From positions 1 to 38,982 of the forward strand of contig JAPYOG010000126.1 in the NCBI GenBank assembly GCA_028278785.1: a stretch of DNA of 38,982 nt. The letters are read 5' to 3'. Origin of the DNA: Candidatus Poriferisocius anaerobius (GTDB lineage Bacteria > Actinomycetota > Acidimicrobiia > Acidimicrobiales > Bin134). The position numbers and the translations under genes are program-made. This document shows positions 10,801 to 23,397 of this stretch, one piece after another (the first letter of the stretch is position 1; every line of letters begins with the position of its first letter). Under the pieces are notes generated by a model that was not told where the DNA came from, did no database searches, and worked only from the letters and a program-made list of their open reading frames with translations.

Positions 10801-11805
10801 CGGGCTTCTTACGGGCTCTCTTTGGCCACCGGCCAGCACATCGAGGTCGGGGAGGCAGTCGGCGTTATCGCCGCCCAGTCGATTGGCGAGCCCGGCACCC
10901 AGCTCACCATGCGGACCTTTCACACCGGCGGTGTGGCCGGCAAAGACATAGCCGGAGGCCTGCCCCGAGTGGTGGAGCTCTTTGAAGCCCGCACGCCCAA
11001 GGGCAAAGCCGAGCTGACCCGGGTCTCAGGAGTGGTGCGAATCCATGAGGATGACGGCAAAGCCAGCCGTCTTGCGGTGGTGGGCGACGATGGCGCGGAG
11101 TGGTCCATCGTCATCGACCCGGCGTGGAAGCTAGCGGTGCGCGACGGCCAAGACGTGTCGGCCGGAGATGCGGTGGCCCAAGCCGACGGGCCCCGCGATC
11201 CCAAGGAGCTCTTGGAGATCCGCGGCGTTCGCGAGACCCAGCAGTATCTAGTGGACGAAGTCCAGCGGGTTTATCGAGATCAGGGCGTTTCAATACACGA
11301 CAAGCACATCGAGTTGATCGTTCGCCAGATGACCCGGCGCGTGGCCATCCAGGAGCCGGGAGACTCCGACTTCTTGCCCGGCGAGCGGGTGGACTCCCAG
11401 GTATTCACCAACGTGAACCGGACCCTCGCCAAAGACGGCAAGCGGCCTGCCGAGGGAAGGCCCGAGCTCATGGGAATCACCAAAGCCTCTTTGGCCACCG
11501 ACTCCTGGCTGTCGGCAGCGTCGTTCCAGGAGACCACTCGGGTGCTGACCGAAGCTGCCATCGAGTCTCGAAGAGACGGGCTCATCGGCTTGAAGGAGAA
11601 CATCATCATCGGCAAGCTGATCCCTGCCGGCACCGGGATGGAGATATACCGGACAATTGCCGCTCACGCTCCCGACTACACCCCAATGGAGTACTACACC
11701 TCAGCCGACGAGGACGTTGACCTGTCCGACCAGTTCGCCCAGTGGGCGGCATCGGCCGAAGCCGTCGAGGCCGACGTGTTGCCGATAGGCGCTATTGAGG
11801 CATAA
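7879..11805 (+). CDS. rpoC: DNA-directed RNA polymerase subunit beta-prime
   Basis: 1308 aa. The ATG directly abuts the rpoB TAA (TAAATG). The Zn-ribbon CYCGKY..CERCG, the catalytic [12 protein letters not shown] and a charged coiled-coil insertion near aa 140-240, as in actinobacterial beta-prime, are present. Confidence 0.98.
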
Positions 11806-11870
11806 ACTTCGATTCTGGGCGCGGTTTTTCTGCGCCTTCCAACTCACTCCAATCAGCCCGAGGAAGTGCT

Positions 11871-12242
11871 GTGCCCACGATTCAGCAGCTAGTGCGCAAA
11901 GGCCGCCAGTCCAAATTCCGCAAAGAGAAGACGCCGGCCCTGAAAGGCGCGCCCCAGAGACGGGGAGTTTGCACACGGGTGTACACCACAACCCCCAAAA
12001 AGCCGAACTCGGCCCTTCGCCGCGTGGCCCGGGTCCGCTTGACCAGCGGCATGGAGATCACCGCCTATATCCCGGGCGAAGGGCACAACCTCCAAGAGCA
12101 CTCCATCGTCCTTGTCCGAGGCGGGCGGGTTCGCGACTTGCCGGGCGTGCGGTACAAGATCATCCGCGGCACCCTCGACACATCGGGAGTCGCCGACCGT
12201 CGCCAGGCTCGCAGCCGCTACGGCGCGAAAAAGGAGAGCTAG
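11871..12242 (+). CDS. rpsL: 30S ribosomal protein S12
   Basis: 123 aa, [25 protein letters not shown] start after GAGGAAG. Confidence 0.97.
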
Positions 12243-12294
12243 CCGTGCTCGGCAGACTCACCGGTGCAGCCAAAGACGAAGGGCAGGCCTGAAG

Positions 12295-12765
12295 ATGCCC
12301 CGCAAAGGCCCAGCAGGTCGACGCGACCTCCCGAGCGATCCGGTGTACGACTCGCTGCTCGTCACCCAGGTGGTGAACAAGGTTCTGCAAAGGGGCAAGC
12401 GCTCCACTGCGGAGCGAATCGTGTACGGTGCGCTCGACATCGTGGAGCACAAGACGAGCGCGGAGCCTCTCGGCACCCTCAAAAGAGCCGTGGACAACGT
12501 CCGGCCCCAACTCGAAGTCCGCAGCCGCCGAGTCGGCGGCGCGACCTATCAAGTACCCGTGGACGTGCGCCCCCGGCGCGCCAACACCCTGGCCATCCGC
12601 TGGATCGTGAACAACGCCCGCGCCCGGCGTGAGCGCACCATGACCGATCGGCTGGCCAACGAAATCCTGGATGCCTCCAATGGCCTGGGTGCGTCGGTGA
12701 AGCGGCGCGACGACTTGCACAAGATGGCTGAGTCGAACCGGGCCTTCGCCCATTACCGCTGGTAA
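12295..12765 (+). CDS. rpsG: 30S ribosomal protein S7
   Basis: The frame is open from 12112, but the S7 N-terminus [18 protein letters not shown] begins at ATG 12295. This gives 156 aa ending AFAHYRW. Confidence 0.96.
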
Positions 12766-14904: not shown

Positions 14905-16095
14905 ATGGCAAAGGAAACATTCGAACGAACCAAGCCGCACTTGAACGTGGGCACGATGGGCCACATCGACCACGGGAAGACCACACTTACCGCGGCCATC
15001 ACCAAGGTGCTGTCGGAAGCCGATCCCAGCACCACGCAGTTCACCGAGTTCGACAACATCGACAAGGCGCCGGAAGAGCGGGAGCGGGGCATCACCATCA
15101 ACGTGGCCCATGTGGAGTACGAAACCCCCAACCGCCACTACGCCCATGTCGATATGCCCGGCCACGCCGACTACATCAAGAACATGATCACCGGCGCTGC
15201 CCAGGTCGACGGCGCCATCTTGGTGGTGTCGGCTGCCGACGGCCCCATGCCCCAGACCCGAGAGCACGTCTTGCTCGCCCGCCAGGTCGGCGTGCCTGCC
15301 ATCGTGGTGGCACTGAACAAGGTGGACATGGTCGACGACGAGGAGCTGCTGGAGCTGGTGGAGCTCGAGGTGCGAGAGCTGCTGAACGAGTACGACTTCC
15401 CCGGCGACGACATTCCAGTGGTGCCGGTGTCGGCCCTCAAAGCTCTCGAGGGCGACCCCGAGTCCGCCCAGCAGGTGCTGGAGCTGATGGAACAGGTGGA
15501 CTCCTACATCGCCGAGCCCGAGCGAGATGTGGACAAGCCGTTCCTAATGCCCATCGAAGACGTGTTCTCCATCACCGGTCGGGGCACCGTGGTCACCGGA
15601 CGGGTCGAGCAGGGCATCGTGAACACCGGCGACAAGGTGGAGATAGTGGGCATCCGGGACACTTCCGAAACGGTCTGCACCGGTGTGGAGATGTTCCGCA
15701 AACTTCTCGACGAAGGCCGTGCCGGGGACAACATCGGGGCACTGTTGCGGGGCACCGACAAGAACGACGTGCAGCGCGGCCAGGTACTGTCCAAGCCGGG
15801 ATCTATCACGCCCCACACCCAGTTCGAGGCCCAAGTCTACGTCCTCACCAAAGAAGAGGGCGGGCGCCACAAGCCGTTCTTCAGCAACTACCGACCCCAG
15901 TTCTACTTCCGCACCACCGATGTGACCGGCACCATCGGCCTGCCGGAGGGCACGGAGATGTGCATGCCCGGGGACAACACCGAAATGCTGGTTGACCTGA
16001 TCGCTCCCATCGCTATGGATGAGGGTCTGCGCTTTGCCATCCGCGAAGGCGGCCGCACCGTCGGCGCCGGGACCGTCACAAAGATCATCAAGTAA
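14905..16095 (+). CDS. tuf: elongation factor Tu
   Basis: The frame is open from 14707, but the real N-terminus [27 protein letters not shown] starts at ATG 14905 after GGAGG. 396 aa with DMPGHADY and NKVD motifs. Confidence 0.98.
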
Positions 16096-16100
16096 CTCGC

Positions 16101-16421
16101 ATGGCGACGGGACAGAAAATCCGCATCCGGCTCAAGGCCTATGATCACGAGATCATCGACCAGTCCACCAAGAAGATCGTGGAGACGGTCAAGCGCACTC
16201 AAGCCGACTTGCGGGGCCCAGTCCCGTTGCCCACCGAGAAGCACCGCTTCACGGTGATCCGGTCTCCCCACAAGGACAAGGACAGCCGAGAGCACTTCGA
16301 GATCCGCATCCACAAACGCCTGCTCGACATCGTGGAACCGGGCCCCAAGACGGTGGACTCCCTCCAACGCTTGGACTTGCCCGCGGGTGTCGACATCGAG
16401 ATCAAGCTCCAACACGGCTGA
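16101..16421 (+). CDS. rpsJ: 30S ribosomal protein S10
   Basis: 106 aa: [48 protein letters not shown]. Confidence 0.97.
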
Positions 16422-16449
16422 GCGGCAGCCGCCACCGCTGGAGCAAGCC

Positions 16450-17622
16450 GTGGCAACCCCCCAGGTACTACTGCTCCGGGTATCAGGGCCTGACCGCCCC
16501 GGGCTGTTTGCGGCCCTGCTTGATGTTTTGACCGCAGGCGGGGCACACATCCAAGATGTTGAGCAGGTGGTCATCCGCCGTCAGCTCACCCTGGGCATCG
16601 TTATGGAGGTTCCCCCCGGCCAGGATCTGCTCAAAGACCTGCTGCTGTTCGGTTGGGAGCAGCGGATGGCGGTGGAGTTCGATGTGGTCGACCCGATGCC
16701 TTCGGCCCACATCGGCGCCCACGCCGTCACCGTGCTGGGCCGAGAGTTGACCCCGGCAATGCTGGCAGCCACCGCCACCGCCATCGCCTCCGGGGGCGGC
16801 AACATCAACCGCATCGTACGCCTCTCCCGCTACCCCATCTACAGCTATGAGCTGCTGGTCACCGGAGGCGACGCCGATGCCATCCGCCACAATCTGCTGT
16901 CGATTGCCGGCGCCAATCCCGAGTTCGATGTGGCCGTTCAGCGAGAAGGGCTGGCTCGGCGGGCCAAGCGTGTGGCCCTGCTGGATGTGGACTCCACCCT
17001 CATCCAAGACGAGATGATCGATCTCTTGGCCGCCGAGGCGGGATGTCTGGAGATGTGCCAATCCCTGACTGAGCAGGCCATGCGGGGCGAGATCGACTTC
17101 GAGGTTGCCCTGCGAGACCGGGTCCGCCTCTTGGCCGGATTGGACGAAGCAGCGCTGGAACGGGTGTGGGATCGGGTTGCCCTCACTCCTGGGGCCCGCA
17201 CTTTTCTGGCCGCCCTCAAACGGCTGGGCTTTACCATCGCCATCGTGAGCGGTGGCTTCACCCGGTTCTGCAACCGCCTCAAGGAGAACTTCGACCTCGA
17301 CTATGCCTACGCCAACACCCTGGAGATGATCGGCGGCAGACTCACCGGCAACTTGGAGGGACCGATTGTGGACCGCGGTCGCAAGGCCGAAATCCTCCAT
17401 GAGGTGGCTGCGGCCGAAGGGGTCTCATCCGAGCAGGTGGTGGCGGTGGGCGACGGGGCCAACGACATCGACATGCTCACGGCTGCCGGGCTGGGCATCG
17501 CCTTCAACGCCAAGCCCAAGGTACGCGAAGAAGTCGAGACCTCAGTCAGCGTTCCCTACTTGGACGCCGTGCTGTTCCTGCTCGGAGTCAGCCGCGAAGA
17601 AGTCGAAGCCGAGGGGATCTAG
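16450..17622 (+). CDS. serB: phosphoserine phosphatase with two N-terminal ACT domains (SerB2-like, HAD superfamily)
   Basis: HAD motifs LLDVDSTLI, SGGF and GDGANDIDML are present, with two ACT-like modules upstream (LLLRVSGPDRPGLFAALLDVL; AVTVLGRELTPAML). The frame is open from GTG 16387, which overlaps rpsJ by 35 nt. GTG 16450 lies 6 nt after GGAG and downstream of the rpsJ stop, so it is preferred. Confidence 0.85.
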   Translation: MATPQVLLLRVSGPDRPGLFAALLDVLTAGGAHIQDVEQVVIRRQLTLGIVMEVPPGQDLLKDLLLFGWEQRMAVEFDVVDPMPSAHIGAHAVTVLGRELTPAMLAATATAIASGGGNINRIVRLSRYPIYSYELLVTGGDADAIRHNLLSIAGANPEFDVAVQREGLARRAKRVALLDVDSTLIQDEMIDLLAAEAGCLEMCQSLTEQAMRGEIDFEVALRDRVRLLAGLDEAALERVWDRVALTPGARTFLAALKRLGFTIAIVSGGFTRFCNRLKENFDLDYAYANTLEMIGGRLTGNLEGPIVDRGRKAEILHEVAAAEGVSSEQVVAVGDGANDIDMLTAAGLGIAFNAKPKVREEVETSVSVPYLDAVLFLLGVSREEVEAEGI

Positions 17623-17687
17623 CCAGAATTGCGATGAACTCCGAGCCGCCAAACAGCTGACGCCGCCCCTTCCGGCCAGCGCAGGCC

Positions 17688-20645
17688 TCACGGACGAGTC
17701 TTCTTGCCGCCATGGACTGACGGCTCCGCACACCATTGCAACCGCAGGGTTGCCAGCGGATCGAGGACGGAGTCGGGCAGGCCCAAAACTTCGCACAGCA
17801 CCGCTTTGTCCAATTCTTGGCGGGCTTCGTCTCGATAAGCCTCGTTGGCCGGCAGCATGGGCCTTGTCTCGAAGTGGTCGAACACAGACGCCAAGGCCTG
17901 CCTCTGATCGGCGGCGATCGCCCTCAAATCCAACACCGGAATGCTCCCCATGGTGGTCACCGTCACGTTGGCCCGACCCTTTTGCTGCCGATTGGAAACC
18001 CACCAGCGGCCAAGCAGCCCAAGGGTGCTGTTCAGCCATACGCACAGTGCCTTCTCCCAGCTCTCATTCTCGGCCTCGTCATCTGCCGTCGGCTGAAACG
18101 AGGGCCATGCCCGCCCGCCGATGGCACGCTTGGGAGTCAAACAAGCCGCCACCGGCTGCGAGTTAACCCGAAAGTCTCTGTTGATGTGCAGGCGAGTGGC
18201 ACCAGCGATCGAGAACTCCCCCAAATCGGGACGGCCTTCCCATACCACAAGGGCGAACTCCCTCAACTCGGGACGCTCGGCCCCTTGAGAACAAGGCAGA
18301 ACGCACATGGCCGTCTCCGCCCTGTGATCGTGGCACCAGAGTACGGGCCAACTCGCTTGGGTATAGTCGGCGCGCTTTGACAGCTTGACTATCTCGAATG
18401 GCCCGCGGGCAAACCCGTCTGGCGTTCGACCTGAAATATCGCGATCCACCCATCCCCGGTAACCGAGTCGCCCCAACGGTGAGATTGGGAGCTCCAAAAC
18501 CCGGTGACGGGCCAAGGTCAACCGGCCTGTGGCCATCTCAGAGGCAGCCACAGCTACTCCGACGTTCGACACTCCGATGGGGTTTCCTTGCATGTCTCTG
18601 CCGAATGGCGCGATGGCATGAAGACCGATAGCTTGACCGCCAACGGTAAGTAGACTGCTACTTCCAGTCTTGGCATTGATTGCCTGTGCCATCTCCACTC
18701 CGGCGATTGGCGAAAGAGGCCGGTCGTTCAAGATGGCATGGACGACTTCTGATGCTCCCGCCACTGGACCGGTTTTCTTGGTAGCCAAGACAATGACTTC
18801 GGCCATTCCGGTGTCGGCCGAAAACGCGCGGGCTTCAGATGTCTCGTCTCCATGCCCAGATATGGATACAACAGCAATTTTTTCGTACTGAAGAGCCAGC
18901 AGCCATCGGGCCCCACCCCACGCCGCTCCCGAGACCAGCGACGCTGGCAGGATCAGGGCCAACACGCCGCCAGGCTTGAGCTTGGCGTGGGCCAAGTCGA
19001 TGAAGTTGGAGGCGATCCCCGCGTTGCCGTGGCTGGCCTTATTGCCTCTGATTTCACCCGTGCTCGCCGCCAGCGCGTCCGACATCGCCTTTTGATCCTT
19101 CGGATCATTGCCCAAGCCGGCAAAGGCCGGATTGGGCACATCGGCATGACCGGCCTCATGGTTGGTCGGACGGGTGAACGGCGGATTCATGATGGCGATG
19201 TCCAACGACCCTGCGGGAACGTCAGCAACGGCCAGCGCCTCTTCTCCTTGAGCGGCAGCCGCCATTGTCCCATCCCCCCAAAGGGCATATCGCGTGTTCG
19301 AGTGAAGCAGATCCAGCGCGCCGATCCGATATCCGACCACGCCTTGGGTATCGGCCACTTTGCCGTAGGGCATCACCCAGGTCTTCGTCCCGGTGTAGTC
19401 GATGTCGGGCCGCTCTCCCGACAAGCGCGCCGCAGTCAGATGCACGGCCGCGGCCATGATGTCGCAGCCGATCATCACCTCCTCCATGAGCGACCGGTGG
19501 AGTTTGGCATCATCGCCGCCCTCAACCCGATGCCGCTCCACGATGCGGCGATAAACCGCGGTCAAAAGCGCCCCAGTTCCGCACGCCATGTCACCCACTC
19601 GCAACCCGGCAATGGCCTCGGGATCCGACCAGTCCACATCGAGGCGGTCAACCGCCAACTCGGCCAACAGCGCCGCAGACGCGGGACGTGTGTAGAAAGT
19701 GGCGAGAAACTTCCGATCGCCGATCAACTCCCCAAACAGCCGTCCAACAAAGCCAGATGAGTTCGGGTCATCCACAATCTCTCCCGCGGTACGGCACAGG
19801 ATTTCGAGCGCTCGCTTAGCCCCCACGAAACTGTTCATAGCTCGCAACAGCTTCTGGCTCACCCCGAAAATAGGCCAGTAGTTCACTTCCAAGATGTCCC
19901 GCCACATCTCGAGGGCCCCACGCTGATCAAGCTTGTTGTCAGCCATCATCTGCGACGGCGTTGGTATCTCCGGGTGATGCTTGGCGATGTGGAACTGAAA
20001 AAGCACGGCGTTGAACAGGATCGCCATGGCCATCCTGTTGGTCTGCTCCCCTGGCGCCTGAGCCAGCACCTTCCCGAAGGCTTCGTCCGTGCCCACCCCC
20101 TCTGTAGCCCATTGCGCCGCAGCGGTCAGCCGCATCTCCACCAAATCCGCGGTCGCGCCGGTATCGGCGCCGTCGGCGCCAGCCCGATCAACGAACGCGG
20201 CCAACTCGGCAATCCTGCCCTCCAGCCATCCCGACTCAGGAAACCGGACAGGGGCGCCATCTCCGTTCAGCGACCACATGGCCCACTGGAATGTGATCTC
20301 GGTGAATGCTCCTTGGGCTAGTTCCTCATCGGAGAAGTCGTCGAGCCGCTCCGGGCTCCTCATCCCCACGACCACCCTCACCGGGTGCTCATCCTTGGCC
20401 CACCGCGTTCCGAAGTGCCCCAAGCACTGACGCTCCAACTGCTTGGCGGGAACGCCGGCGTACTTGTTCTCCACCAGCACCCGCTCCCGGCCAGGAGCTT
20501 CAACGGTGATGTCGGGCTGCTTGGATGAGCCGACCAGCTTGCTGGCGCGCTCCGCTTCCACCACCGACTGCGGATGGCATCGCCCAATCGCCGCGGCAAT
20601 GGCCGCATTCAGGGCCTTCTCGTCTCGGTGGTCGCCAGAAGCCAT
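17688..20645 (-). CDS. fused PD-(D/E)xK nuclease / gamma-class N6-adenine DNA methyltransferase / C-terminal specificity-like module (type IIG/IIL-like restriction-modification or related single-protein defence enzyme)
   Basis: Numbering follows the 1012-aa frame. QPDITVEAPGRERVLVENKY is at aa 70-89 (P-D..13 aa..E-x-K). FYTRP is at aa 344-348, VGDMACGTG at aa 377-385 and IAIMNPPF at aa 510-517 (NPPF = nt 19176-19187). About 400 aa follow, ending WLNSTLGLL..AVLCEVLGLP. The start is uncertain. ATG 20645 (MASGDHRDEKAL, 985 aa) is preferred. TTG 20726 sits just after GGAGGAGG but adds a Cys/Trp-rich 27 aa that does not look coding. Confidence 0.75.
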   Translation of the reverse strand: MASGDHRDEKALNAAIAAAIGRCHPQSVVEAERASKLVGSSKQPDITVEAPGRERVLVENKYAGVPAKQLERQCLGHFGTRWAKDEHPVRVVVGMRSPERLDDFSDEELAQGAFTEITFQWAMWSLNGDGAPVRFPESGWLEGRIAELAAFVDRAGADGADTGATADLVEMRLTAAAQWATEGVGTDEAFGKVLAQAPGEQTNRMAMAILFNAVLFQFHIAKHHPEIPTPSQMMADNKLDQRGALEMWRDILEVNYWPIFGVSQKLLRAMNSFVGAKRALEILCRTAGEIVDDPNSSGFVGRLFGELIGDRKFLATFYTRPASAALLAELAVDRLDVDWSDPEAIAGLRVGDMACGTGALLTAVYRRIVERHRVEGGDDAKLHRSLMEEVMIGCDIMAAAVHLTAARLSGERPDIDYTGTKTWVMPYGKVADTQGVVGYRIGALDLLHSNTRYALWGDGTMAAAAQGEEALAVADVPAGSLDIAIMNPPFTRPTNHEAGHADVPNPAFAGLGNDPKDQKAMSDALAASTGEIRGNKASHGNAGIASNFIDLAHAKLKPGGVLALILPASLVSGAAWGGARWLLALQYEKIAVVSISGHGDETSEARAFSADTGMAEVIVLATKKTGPVAGASEVVHAILNDRPLSPIAGVEMAQAINAKTGSSSLLTVGGQAIGLHAIAPFGRDMQGNPIGVSNVGVAVAASEMATGRLTLARHRVLELPISPLGRLGYRGWVDRDISGRTPDGFARGPFEIVKLSKRADYTQASWPVLWCHDHRAETAMCVLPCSQGAERPELREFALVVWEGRPDLGEFSIAGATRLHINRDFRVNSQPVAACLTPKRAIGGRAWPSFQPTADDEAENESWEKALCVWLNSTLGLLGRWWVSNRQQKGRANVTVTTMGSIPVLDLRAIAADQRQALASVFDHFETRPMLPANEAYRDEARQELDKAVLCEVLGLPDSVLDPLATLRLQWCAEPSVHGGKKTRP

Positions 20646-20776
20646 CACCCGATTGTATGAGCAGGTTGTGACAGCTTGGCTGCAACCCCCGTCCATGCGT
20701 GCCTGCGACCAATGAATCCAGCACAATCCTCCTCCACGGCAGCGAAACCGGCCCGCCGGGGTGCTACAAAACGGCT

Positions 20777-21277
20777 ATGGGCCAGACCACATTCAAAGAC
20801 ACAACCATCAACACCAGCGGCGACCTCCCCGCGGTGGGATCAGCAGCCCCCGCGTTCACGCTCACCGGAGGCGACCTGTCGCAGGTCACGCTGGAAAGCC
20901 TGGCCGGCCGCAACGTGGTGCTCAACATCTTCCCCAGCATCGACACAGGGGTGTGCGCTACCAGCGTGCGAACCTTCAACGAGCGGGCTGCCGGCCATGA
21001 CAACACCACCGTGATCTGCGCCTCGTTGGACCTGCCCTTCGCCAGTTCCCGGTTCTGCGGCGCCGAGGGCATCGACAACGCGGTCATCGGCTCGATCTTC
21101 CGCAACCGGGAGTTCCTAGACGACTACGGAGTGGAGATGGTCGACGGCCCCCTCGCGGGCCTCACCGCCCGGGCCGTGGTGGTCATCGGACCCGACGGCA
21201 CCGTGACCCACGCCGAGCTGGTGGGCGCCATCGCCGACGAGCCGGACTACGACGCCGCCCTCGCCGCCTGCTCCTGA
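20777..21277 (+). CDS. tpx: thiol peroxidase (Tpx-type peroxiredoxin)
   Basis: 166 aa collinear with Tpx: NIFPSIDTGVCATSVRTFN (peroxidatic Cys), DLPFASSRFCGAEGI (resolving Cys) and ARAVVVIGPDG. The frame is open from 20699, but the homologous start MGQTTFKD is ATG 20777. Confidence 0.92.
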   Translation: MGQTTFKDTTINTSGDLPAVGSAAPAFTLTGGDLSQVTLESLAGRNVVLNIFPSIDTGVCATSVRTFNERAAGHDNTTVICASLDLPFASSRFCGAEGIDNAVIGSIFRNREFLDDYGVEMVDGPLAGLTARAVVVIGPDGTVTHAELVGAIADEPDYDAALAACS

Positions 21278-21293
21278 GCCTGGCTCTCGCCGG

Positions 21294-22415
21294 TCAGGAG
21301 TCGGACTGCCTCCGGACATAGCGGGCAAGCCGCTGCCCCAGGGGGTCGCGGTGAGAATGCCGAGCTGCTTCGGCTTCTTCAAGCTCCTGCACAACTTCGC
21401 CCCTTTGCAGATAAGTGGACAGGAAAGCCTGGACGGTAGCTGCGGCAGGCAGAGCCAGCACCGCACCGACAGCCCCGAGCAACAAGCTGCCTGCGATCAC
21501 CGAGCCGAATGCCACGGTCACGTGGATTTCCATGGTGTGGGCCGTCACCTTGGGCTGGAGCAGGTAGTTCTCCACCTGCTGATAGGCCACGATCGCAATC
21601 AAAATGCCCAATCCGGTGGAGGGTTTGTCCAGCAGTCCGATCAGCACCGGCAGCGCTCCGGCGATGTAGGTGCCGACCACCGGCACGAACTGCGACACCA
21701 ACCCCACCCACATGGCCATGGGCGCCGGGAACGGCGCCCCCAGCAGCCAGAACACCAGCCAATGGACCAAAAACGAGATCACCGCCAAGATCAGCCGGCT
21801 GTAGATGTAGCCCCCGGTCTTGTCGATGGCCAGATTCCAAATGCCCAGCACGAGGCGTTGGCGCTCTGGGGGCAGCAGCGAGCAGATGTTGCGCCGCAGT
21901 TTGGGGCCCTCGGCAACCAGGTAGAAGGTGAAAAGCGCGATGGTCAGAACCTGGAACAGCACTTGCATCACCGTGGCCCCCAGGCTCACCAAGTTGTCGG
22001 CCAGCCGGGTGGCCAGATTGGCAACCGCTCCCCCTTCCTGGAACTCGTCAAGCAATCCCTGGGCATCAACCTCTATGTCGAAGGCATCCTCAACCCAGTC
22101 CTCGATGTCGTTGATGTAGGCGGGAGCGTTGTCGGTGAACTCCCCAACCTGATCGGCCAAAACGGTGCCGATGGCCCATAGGAAAAACCCCAGCGCCACA
22201 AGCACGACCAGAAACATGGCTCCGGTGCCCACGCCCCGGCGAATGCCCATCCGCTCCATGCGGTTCACGGCAGGCTCAAGCGCAAACGACAAGAAGAGCG
22301 ACACCAAAACGATCACGATCAGCGTCTTGAGCTGTTCGAGCAGCCAACCCAGCACATACAGCCCGCCGAGCGCAGCCGTGCCGGCCAAAATGGCCCGAGA
22401 CAGCCATGGCGGCAT
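21294..22415 (-). CDS. AI-2E family (PerM/UPF0118) membrane transporter
   Basis: 373 aa and polytopic. Family-typical blocks are LVSQFVPVVGTYIAGALPVLIGLL and VAYQQVENYLLQPKVTAHTMEIH..LALPAAA. It converges on tpx with a 16-nt gap. Confidence 0.85.
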   Translation of the reverse strand: MPPWLSRAILAGTAALGGLYVLGWLLEQLKTLIVIVLVSLFLSFALEPAVNRMERMGIRRGVGTGAMFLVVLVALGFFLWAIGTVLADQVGEFTDNAPAYINDIEDWVEDAFDIEVDAQGLLDEFQEGGAVANLATRLADNLVSLGATVMQVLFQVLTIALFTFYLVAEGPKLRRNICSLLPPERQRLVLGIWNLAIDKTGGYIYSRLILAVISFLVHWLVFWLLGAPFPAPMAMWVGLVSQFVPVVGTYIAGALPVLIGLLDKPSTGLGILIAIVAYQQVENYLLQPKVTAHTMEIHVTVAFGSVIAGSLLLGAVGAVLALPAAATVQAFLSTYLQRGEVVQELEEAEAARHSHRDPLGQRLARYVRRQSDS

Positions 22416-22544
22416 CTTCTTGGACGAGTCGGGGCGATCAGCGGCCGGAGTGGACCTGGGATCCGTTGATCCACCCGCAGGCGCAGAATCCGATACCTCG
22501 CCGATGGTTTCACATTAACCGTCGTCTTTTGCCCAGTTGTGGAT

Positions 22545-22573
22545 TTGGCCAAGTCCGCAACAACCGCTATCGT
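22545..22573 (+). promoter_or_regulatory. candidate promoter for the rplC-led operon (TTGGCC-17 nt-TATCGT)
   Basis: -35 at 22545-22550, a 17-nt spacer and -10 (TAnnnT) at 22568-22573, in a locally AT-richer part of the 337-nt perM/rplC divergent spacer. This would leave a 5' leader of about 170 nt. Pattern match only. Confidence 0.3.
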
Positions 22574-22752
22574 TTAACAACCGTGCTGACTCCGGTCGGC
22601 GCTGTTCGTCCCAATAGACGTCCGTCTAGGCCCATTACGAGCATTCGTCCTGCTCGGGGAACCGGACGGCACAATCCAAACCCGCTCCGCCGGAAAGCCC
22701 CACTAGCTGGGTCTGAGACCGTGCGGAGCGTTCGCGTGAAAGCAGGTTCGCG

Positions 22753-23397
22753 ATGGTTGCCAAGGCGATTGTCGGCGAAAAACTAGGAATGACCCAAGTA
22801 TGGGACGAAGACGACCGCGTCGTGCCCGTGACCGTGCTGAAGGTAGAACCCTGCCGGGTCGTGCAGGTCAAACGGCCGGAAACCGACGGGTATTCCGCCC
22901 TCCAGGTCACCTATGGCACCCAGAATCCTGACCGGCTGAGCCAACCGGAGAGGGGCCACTTGGCCAAGGCCGGTGTTGCCCCAGGCCGCAAGCTGGTGGA
23001 ACTGCGGCTCGACGATGTTGGGGCCTACGAGGCCGGACAGGAGATCGGGGTCGACGTGTTCGGTGGCGGCGAGTTGGTCGACGTCACCGGAGTGAGCAAG
23101 GGCAAGGGCTTCACCGGGGTCATGAAAAGGCACAACTTCAGCGGTCAAAAAGCCAGCCACGGCGCCCACAAAGTCCACCGCAAGCCCGGCGCTATCGGCC
23201 AGTGCGCCACACCCTCGAGGGTATTCCGAGGCAAGAGGATGCCGGGGCGAGCCGGCGCGGAAAAGGTCACCACGCTGAACCTCCAGGTTGTCGGCGTGGA
23301 CAGTGAAAACGATCTGATTCTGCTGAAGGGCTCGGTTCCCGGGCGTCGCGGGTCCGCGGTGCTGATTCGCAGCGCGGTGAAGAAAGAGCCGAAATGA
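22753..23397 (+). CDS. rplC: 50S ribosomal protein L3
   Basis: 214 aa: GEKLGMTQVWDEDDRVVPVTVL..VSKGKGFTGVMKRHNFSGQKASHG. Confidence 0.97.
   Translation: MVAKAIVGEKLGMTQVWDEDDRVVPVTVLKVEPCRVVQVKRPETDGYSALQVTYGTQNPDRLSQPERGHLAKAGVAPGRKLVELRLDDVGAYEAGQEIGVDVFGGGELVDVTGVSKGKGFTGVMKRHNFSGQKASHGAHKVHRKPGAIGQCATPSRVFRGKRMPGRAGAEKVTTLNLQVVGVDSENDLILLKGSVPGRRGSAVLIRSAVKKEPK

Follow-up and report, generated by a model that had tools for sequence, protein, structure and literature searches.

The type IIG restriction–modification (R-M) enzyme BpuSI combines an N-terminal PD-(D/E)xK nuclease, a helical connector, a gamma-class N6-adenine methyltransferase (MTase) and a C-terminal recognition domain in one chain and has no partner. 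In the MmeI/DrdV family (type IIL), specificity is altered via the recognition domain. Here we analyze a minus-strand gene of Candidatus Poriferisocius anaerobius on contig JAPYOG010000126.1, of which the whole 38,982-nt stretch is referred to as the window. The gene is situated in the gap between rpsJ and rplC, and its product is probably a stand-alone, single-polypeptide type IIG-like R-M enzyme built like BpuSI.

Gene and predicted architecture

The list of open reading frames (ORFs) of the window contains a minus-strand frame at 17688-20726 that encodes 1012 amino acids (aa) from a TTG codon. As gene calls of 1002 and 985 aa exist on an identical JGI contig and homologues are mostly ~986 aa long, the likely start is the ATG at 20645 (Met28 of the 1012-aa frame), which gives 985 aa. 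Residues are numbered in this shorter frame unless stated otherwise; adding 27 yields the numbering of the 1012-aa frame. The gene and its parts are as follows.

17688-20645, minus strand: single-chain nuclease–methyltransferase gene, 985 aa from ATG 20645, stop codon 17688-17690 (ORF list, JGI calls, homologues)
20696 (1002 aa) and TTG 20726 (1012 aa), minus strand: alternative upstream starts
20211-20645, minus strand: N-terminal PD-(D/E)xK nuclease-like domain, aa 1-145, alpha-beta-beta-beta-alpha-beta core (AlphaFold2 and Foldseek)
20463-20516, minus strand: putative catalytic motif P44-D45...E59-N-K61, which is P71-D72...E86-x-K88 in the 1012-aa frame (secondary structure and conservation)
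19716-20210, minus strand: all-helical connector, aa 146-310 (AlphaFold2 helices at 145-309; mean pairwise identity 41%)
18726-19715, minus strand: predicted gamma-class N6-adenine DNA MTase domain, aa ~311-640 (invariant motifs, weak profile matches, Foldseek)
DRKFLATFYTRP, minus strand: motif X of the MTase domain
19572-19592, minus strand: MTase motif I, D352-x-A-C-G-T-G358
19176-19187, minus strand: MTase motif IV, NPPF 487-490
18221-18917, minus strand: hypervariable recombining cassette, aa ~577-808, comprising the end of the MTase fold and the variable half of the presumed target-recognition domain (blastn, protein identity)
17691-18220, minus strand: C-terminal module, aa ~809-985, conserved (mean pairwise identity 57%) and presumed to be the scaffold half of the recognition domain

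An earlier note on this DNA had recognized a nuclease–MTase fusion from short motifs, and these occur where it had placed them in the 1012-aa frame. The nuclease motif lies within QPDITVEAPGRERVLVENKY (aa 70-89), with 13 residues between D and E and with P-D to K spanning nt 20463-20516; FYTRP, VGDMACGTG and IAIMNPPF occupy aa 344-348, 377-385 and 510-517, and WLNSTLGLL and DKAVLCEVLGLP are found near the C-terminus. The MTase motifs follow the gamma-class order, DRKFLATFYTRP (X), then DMACGTG (I), then NPPF (IV), an arrangement invariant in 196 members of the family, and the NPPF motif suggests adenine rather than N4-cytosine as the target base.

A full-length AlphaFold2 model, built on a 61-sequence alignment, reached a predicted local distance difference test score (pLDDT) of 86.3 and a predicted template modelling (TM) score of 0.89. 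Its top Foldseek match in the PDB is BpuSI (3s1s; E 4e-17, ~1088 aligned columns). Next come CamA, DrdV of type IIL (E 5e-12), PglX/BrxX, M.BseCI, a type I M subunit and LlaBIII (type ISP). Sequence identities to these proteins are 10-16%. Global TM-scores are 0.3-0.4, as low as is to be expected when the domains of multi-domain proteins are oriented differently. Model and fold matches together back the domain order given in the earlier note, namely nuclease, helical connector, gamma-class MTase and C-terminal recognition region, and thus predict endonuclease and MTase domains in one polypeptide, the hallmark of type IIG enzymes.

BpuSI has the same domain order; at ~11% identity, however, no sequence-level relationship to it is detectable, and the global TM-score of only 0.33-0.36 indicates that the domain orientations differ. 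At ~345-385 aa, the region following the MTase is larger than in BpuSI, and its last ~180 aa form a very conserved module. MmeI and DrdV likewise share the architecture, but membership of the MmeI (IIL) family proper is unsupported by sequence. The catalytic motif is NPPF, and among the MmeI-specific models only MmeI_Mtase was matched, in 3 of 45 relatives and at E>=0.018; the other models, which we take to be MmeI_N, MmeI_hel, MmeI_TRD and MmeI_C, gave no match. CamA, M.BseCI and M.TaqI superpose best over the MTase core and C-terminal DNA-recognition domain (target TM 0.55-0.61), but these proteins of ~420-585 aa lack the N-terminal nuclease and the helical connector.

The N-terminal 150 aa were also modelled alone (pLDDT 91.9). 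The model contains a helix at residues 9-23, strands at 28-31, 46-49 and 56-62, a helix at 67-76 and a strand at 91-97, with D45 at the start of strand 2 and E59-N-K61 on strand 3; it thereby displays the features that define the PD-(D/E)xK superfamily, i.e., the core topology, an Asp on strand 2 and (D/E)xK on strand 3. In Foldseek searches of PDB and BFVD with this isolated segment, the named top matches were PD-(D/E)xK-fold proteins alone. The PDB matches comprised 3ijm ('restriction endonuclease-like fold'; E 6e-3, prob 0.99), Hjc, the RecU/PrfA resolvases, McrC, HincII and BstEII, as well as R2 endonuclease domains, Bax1 and the SPARDA nuclease; those in BFVD were Mrr, VRR-NUC and 'PD-(D/E)XK nuclease' proteins. 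The nuclease fold that the earlier note had proposed for the N-terminus is thus supported by modelling and by matches in two structure libraries, and the domain may well be catalytically competent.

Conserved predicted active sites and a presumed recognition cassette

Residue conservation was counted in 196 non-redundant members, 176 of which have the nuclease-like N-terminal domain. In the MTase, the N, P and P of NPPF are invariant and its F is found in 195 of 196 sequences, while D352-x-x-x-G356-x-G358 of motif I is invariant throughout. Among the members with the N-terminal domain, position 45 is Asp in 175 of 176, position 59 is Glu in 171 and Asp in two, and position 32 is Glu in 144 and Gln in 27. 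Both predicted active sites are under purifying selection, and the pattern goes well beyond a chance occurrence of motifs. Mean pairwise identity is 37% in the nuclease domain, 41% in the helical connector, 55% in the MTase, 40% over aa 601-765 and 57% over aa 766-985; the conserved C-terminal module carries the motifs WLNSTLGL, RQQxGRA, LPANEAYRD and QWCxEPSVHGGK.

A natural allele swap delimits the region that is likely to determine specificity. In locus L002, from the same species, the products of fusA, tuf, rpsJ, serB, tpx, the transporter gene, rplC, rplD and rplB are 99-100% identical to those of the window, whereas the enzymes share 89%. The difference is concentrated in one block: at the DNA level (blastn), the flanks are 99.5% and 99.2% identical while ~700 nt at 18221-18917 fail to align, and at the protein level identity is 99-100% up to aa 576, 56% over aa 577-808 and 95% over aa 809-985. 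Such sharp boundaries in a near-identical background point to allelic replacement by recombination rather than gradual divergence. The same segment is the most variable part of the protein across the clade, where its identities are 50-78% and those of the MTase 80-94%. Cassettes and backbones also vary separately elsewhere in the family: the proteins P0019 and P0025 have backbones 79% and cassettes 94% identical, and two tandem paralogues in L035 (6474-9923 and 9995-12979) have backbones 75% and cassettes 32% identical. In another tandem pair (L057, 6860-9859 and 9863-12943), backbones are 83% and cassettes 96% identical.

A target-recognition module that diversifies under selection would be expected to behave in this way, and specificity is likely to reside at aa ~577-808, more precisely at ~640-808, past the last MTase strands. 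The earlier note had likened the end of the C-terminal ~400 aa to the termini of target-recognition modules. A variable recombining cassette is indeed present, but the variable part is confined to aa ~577-808, and the last ~180 aa, as conserved as the MTase core, are presumed to be the scaffold of the recognition region. This module has no Pfam or PDB sequence match. WLNSTLGL and LD..VL..LGLP resemble the termini of TaqI_C/HsdS-type recognition domains; TaqI_C (PF12950) was not matched at E<=10 in 23 C-terminal segments or in whole-protein Pfam scans, nor was any HsdS-type Pfam model at E<=10 in the C-terminal segments.

Considering the architecture and the cassette pattern, we hypothesize that the C-terminal region, consisting of the variable cassette (aa ~577-808) on its conserved scaffold (aa ~809-985), would read a specific DNA sequence. 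The gamma-class MTase (DxACGTG, NPPF) would use S-adenosyl-methionine to produce N6-methyladenine (m6A) in the recognized site on the host chromosome, and the N-terminal PD-(D/E)xK domain (E32, D45, E59, K61), held on the helical connector, would cut unmethylated incoming DNA away from the site. If BpuSI, MmeI and DrdV are a guide, cleavage probably needs at least two enzyme molecules. Recombinational replacement of the cassette would diversify specificity.

A family of hypothetical proteins across many phyla

Curated profile libraries recognize the protein only below their thresholds, and the matches fall on the MTase core (Eco57I, N6_Mtase, MTase_II and MAD2 models). Pfam Eco57I (PF07669) gave 12.6 bits (E 0.15) against a gathering threshold of 25.3 bits; 28 of 45 relatives match it at E<=0.1 (best 8e-8), and one of them, P0073, just passes at 25.8 bits. 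The NCBIfam model of MAD2 from MADS systems (NF047738) gave E 3.7e-6, and the BREX-6 PglX model E 0.11. Sub-threshold matches in PADLOC were MTase_II (E 1e-8), MAD2 (E 6.6e-8), REase_MTase_IIG (E 2e-4) and PglX (E 1e-3). A single-sequence search of the PDB returned nothing meaningful, and searches of the PDB with full-length, N-terminal and C-terminal sequences or profiles yielded nothing beyond motif I of BREX PglX, found with the family profile at E 1e-3; a match to the leucine-rich repeats of YopM was spurious. More than 3000 proteins match the enzyme at E<=1e-3, and each named one is a 'hypothetical protein'. These results bear out the suggestion of a diverged or undescribed family; the literature search found nothing on this enzyme family, only general remarks that R-M systems are enriched in sponge microbiomes. 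It is a new, unannotated family of a kind of system, the single-protein type IIG R-M enzyme, that is already well known.

The MAD2 and PglX matches raise the question of whether the protein is instead the MTase or specificity subunit of a multi-gene system (BREX PglX-, MADS MAD2- or DISARM DrmMI-like) whose partners are encoded elsewhere. PglX/BrxX has the highest query-normalized TM-scores (0.41-0.42, Foldseek) as well as the only PDB profile match, and its chains of ~1205-1225 aa are of the same order of size as the 985-aa protein. However, PglX has no nuclease domain, unlike the window protein with its predicted nuclease fold, and works only with other BREX genes. No BREX, MADS or DISARM genes are present in the window; brxA/B/C, pglZ and brxL neighbours are absent from the window and from 83 related loci, the window protein matches the PglX models only below cut-off, and its MAD2 score of 25.5 bits is far under the cut-off of 720, with no conserved mad1-8 neighbours in those loci. 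The context analysis largely refutes a role as such a subunit, and we give it hardly any credence.

Partner genes were sought by all-vs-all clustering of the ORFs of these 83 loci, which span many phyla, with 10-kb flanks. No gene family besides the enzyme itself is common to them, and synteny exists within clades only, in agreement with the earlier view of a solo gene. The recurrent ORF clusters were shadow ORFs inside the gene or reflected clade-specific synteny. Without a conserved neighbour, and with a C-terminal cassette and a whole-length match to BpuSI, recognition appears to reside in the same chain, with no M or S subunit, as in type IIG enzymes.

A profile of the C-terminal domain retrieved 1659 representatives of 50%-identity clusters; in the best 150 of these, the domain lies at the C-terminal end, and full-length proteins have ~950-1060 aa. 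In 20 of the 196 members, an unrelated N-terminal segment of ~170 aa, with the pattern LF..LGWD ... VDVW.VP ... SLE.L.VFDG.DG.MLW.WPE and without Pfam match, replaces the PD-ExK domain, and the rest of the protein is ~50% identical; these members include P0073, P0074, P0076, P0077, P0081-P0083, P0088, P0091, P0093 and P0097.

When each GTDB species was represented by one genome, at least 585 relatives were detected. The 79 best loci belong to Acidimicrobiia, Latescibacterota, Gemmatimonadota/Longimicrobiales, Rhodothermales and Bacteroidota, Alpha- and Gammaproteobacteria, Dehalococcoidia, Binatia, Spirochaetales and Acidobacteriota. Many record titles carry sponge-derived names (Ca. Poriferisocius, Poriferihabitaceae, Palauibacter rhopaloidicola, Hopanoidivorans cymbastelae), and from their isolate codes we presume a sponge origin for the remaining bins. 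Over L005-L083, the family thus covers about ten bacterial phyla or classes; the members spread in this way are 39-51% identical and occupy unrelated loci, and several genomes have two or three copies of the gene. This distribution suggests extensive horizontal exchange within sponge holobionts.

The gene is horizontally mobile, and more distant relatives are found on mobile elements. The Nitrosospira plasmid pNRS527-2 (L092) carries a full-length relative (34% identity) that adjoins type IV secretion system genes. On the Aminobacter plasmid pUSP4 (L091), an 'N-6 DNA methylase' matches aa 204-958 only, leaving the nuclease-like domain unmatched; it adjoins an annotated zincin-like metallopeptidase, which we take to be ArdC-like in a context that we read as leading-region-like. 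The relative on the Dinoroseobacter plasmid pDSHI04 (L090) is a fragment flanked by insertion sequences (ISs). Five IMG/VR contigs also carry relatives, near-full-length in four; one contig (L085) has two integrase genes, and its relative is full-length. The spread over phyla, the occasional multiple copies, the plasmid neighbourhoods and the integrase-bearing contig would all fit a mainly selfish or mobile-element gene, i.e., an addiction module or a methylase protecting transferred DNA, kept by horizontal spread rather than host benefit. In the window's clade, however, the gene keeps its syntenic place on the chromosome, where integrase, transposase and flanking repeats are all lacking, and selfish behaviour would be compatible with type IIG R-M activity and not an alternative to it. 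As an explanation in its own right we regard it as quite improbable.

A broader proposal, which we consider conceivable but doubtful, sees in the window protein the founding example of a very large family, hitherto undescribed, whose members are modular single-chain R-M enzymes and form at least 1659 clusters at 50% identity. They would amount to a three-part kit in which the N-terminal effector (a PD-ExK/ExE nuclease or the unrelated ~170-aa domain) and the recognition cassette can be exchanged while the C-terminal module stays invariant, and the kit would be traded among sponge and coral symbionts of at least ten phyla. If so, the kit would provide a shared but strain-individualized methylation and restriction code in a holobiont community. 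On this view, the C-terminal module might do more than recognize DNA, e.g., mediate oligomerization or couple recognition to cleavage. More modestly, if the R-M prediction holds, current annotation and defence-finder models have missed a type IIG family; as all its copies are called hypothetical, it is under-counted in defence inventories of sponge and coral symbionts. The natural cassette swap marks aa ~577-808 as the likely specificity region, which makes the family attractive for the engineering of new specificities and for assigning m6A motifs to individual alleles in long-read metagenomes.

The rpsJ–rplC locus and the weighing of function

The gene order in the window is tuf, rpsJ, serB (plus strand), the R-M gene (minus), tpx (plus), an AI-2E-family transporter gene (minus) and rplC.

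16101-16421: rpsJ
16450-22415: four-gene islet between rpsJ and rplC, made up of serB, the R-M gene, tpx and the AI-2E-family transporter gene (Pfam-annotated identical or syntenic contigs)
20777-21277, plus strand: tpx
21294-22415, minus strand: AI-2E-family transporter
22753-23397: rplC

As the earlier note had described, serB is convergent with the enzyme gene and tpx divergent from it, with rpsJ and rplC outside both. Its position between rpsJ and rplC is also correct, but placing it inside the ribosomal-protein super-operon was an overstatement, the gene being one of four in a variable islet and lying on the opposite strand. In the window, rpsJ begins only 5 nt after tuf and a 337-nt spacer precedes rplC; in this genus, the classical S10 operon is therefore already interrupted. 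The location is thus unusual for the rpsJ–rplC junction but less dramatic than a toxic gene within an operon.

The enzyme gene is found between serB and tpx in 12 further loci of the Ca. Poriferisocius clade (L001-L003, L005-L010, L012, L013 and L093). The enzymes are 70-89% identical there, whereas neighbouring proteins are 79-99% identical, and the gene is therefore the fastest-evolving at the locus. Two copies are disrupted: in L012 the orthologue is split by an IS3-family element (11768-12685), and in L093 it is frameshifted into ORFs of 817 and 221 aa (15889-18917), for which an assembly error is possible. The gene is non-essential and not housekeeping. The earlier note had named a housekeeping methylase conserved at this locus as the contrary case; the gene is syntenic in the genus, but its cassettes are swapped and two genomes have it disrupted. 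In L004 and L011, a homologue with 60% identity is located elsewhere, between ligA and other methylase genes; in L004 (1-9758), two N6_N4_Mtase genes and a MvaI/BcnI-type endonuclease gene surround it, and the region looks like an R-M cluster adjoining ligA.

Several observations weigh against a type IIG-like R-M enzyme. Retention between serB and tpx in all 12 loci is longer than that of many R-M genes. The fold matches of the isolated nuclease domain, though uniform in kind, are of low significance (E no better than 6e-3 in PDB and 4e-4 in BFVD, TM ~0.45), and no model of Pfam (Eco57I, N6_Mtase, MmeI_*, TaqI_C) or NCBIfam, nor PADLOC REase_MTase_IIG, is matched above threshold by the window protein. 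At position 61, Lys occurs in 68 members (the window's clade) and Glu in 105, so that E-x-E is commoner than E-x-K. For a recognition domain, the C-terminal ~180 aa vary unusually little. The MTase and nuclease activities, the cleavage geometry and the defence phenotype are themselves predictions from sequence and model.

Some of these points would equally suit an orphan adenine MTase in which a non-cutting nuclease-like domain serves as a DNA-binding or regulatory module. Such an enzyme would not restrict DNA but take part in epigenetic regulation or provide a methylation mark specific to the strain. Retention at one locus and E-x-E in place of the textbook E-x-K in most of the family would fit, as would the replacement of the nuclease-like domain in 20 of 196 members and the plasmid-borne 'N-6 DNA methylase' of Aminobacter that matches outside this domain; variable recognition domains, moreover, also occur in phase-variable regulatory methylases. 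Yet E-x-E and E-x-Q variants are active in known nucleases such as BamHI and BglII, and the acidic residues of the nuclease are near-invariant wherever the domain exists, which is hard to explain for a dead domain. The disruption of the gene in two sister genomes, among IS elements and candidate defence genes, also argues against a regulatory methylase. We therefore consider an orphan MTase unlikely and favour the type IIG-like R-M enzyme.

The content of the rpsJ–rplC gap was compared between the window (16101-23397), L006, L009, L012, L084 and L093. In Ca. Poriferisocius, serB, tpx and the AI-2E transporter gene are present in all genomes and further content varies: some genomes contain an HpcH/HpaI lyase gene, a metallo-β-lactamase-fold LmuA-like gene, an unknown 1184-aa ORF or a candidate defence gene (PADLOC PDC-S39/DUF7380) together with IS3 transposases. 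This company of candidate defence genes and mobile elements in sister genomes also speaks for an R-M enzyme. A normally rigid gene junction has thus become a small hotspot of variable and defence genes in one actinobacterial genus. In other Acidimicrobiia, with serB at most 59% identical, serB lies away from ribosomal genes, and for this reason the ancestral empty state was not recovered; a search for an empty site via serB relatives in metagenomes returned one more Poriferisocius locus, occupied and frameshifted.

Around the gene in the window, no meaningful direct or inverted repeats, integrase or adjoining tRNA were found, and scans for promoters and terminators, as well as folding of the convergent spacer between serB and the R-M gene, gave nothing above shuffled background. 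The sole Rfam/ARAGORN match in the window is a tRNA-Trp (CCA) at 362-435, upstream of the rpoB-rpoC ribosomal-protein cluster.

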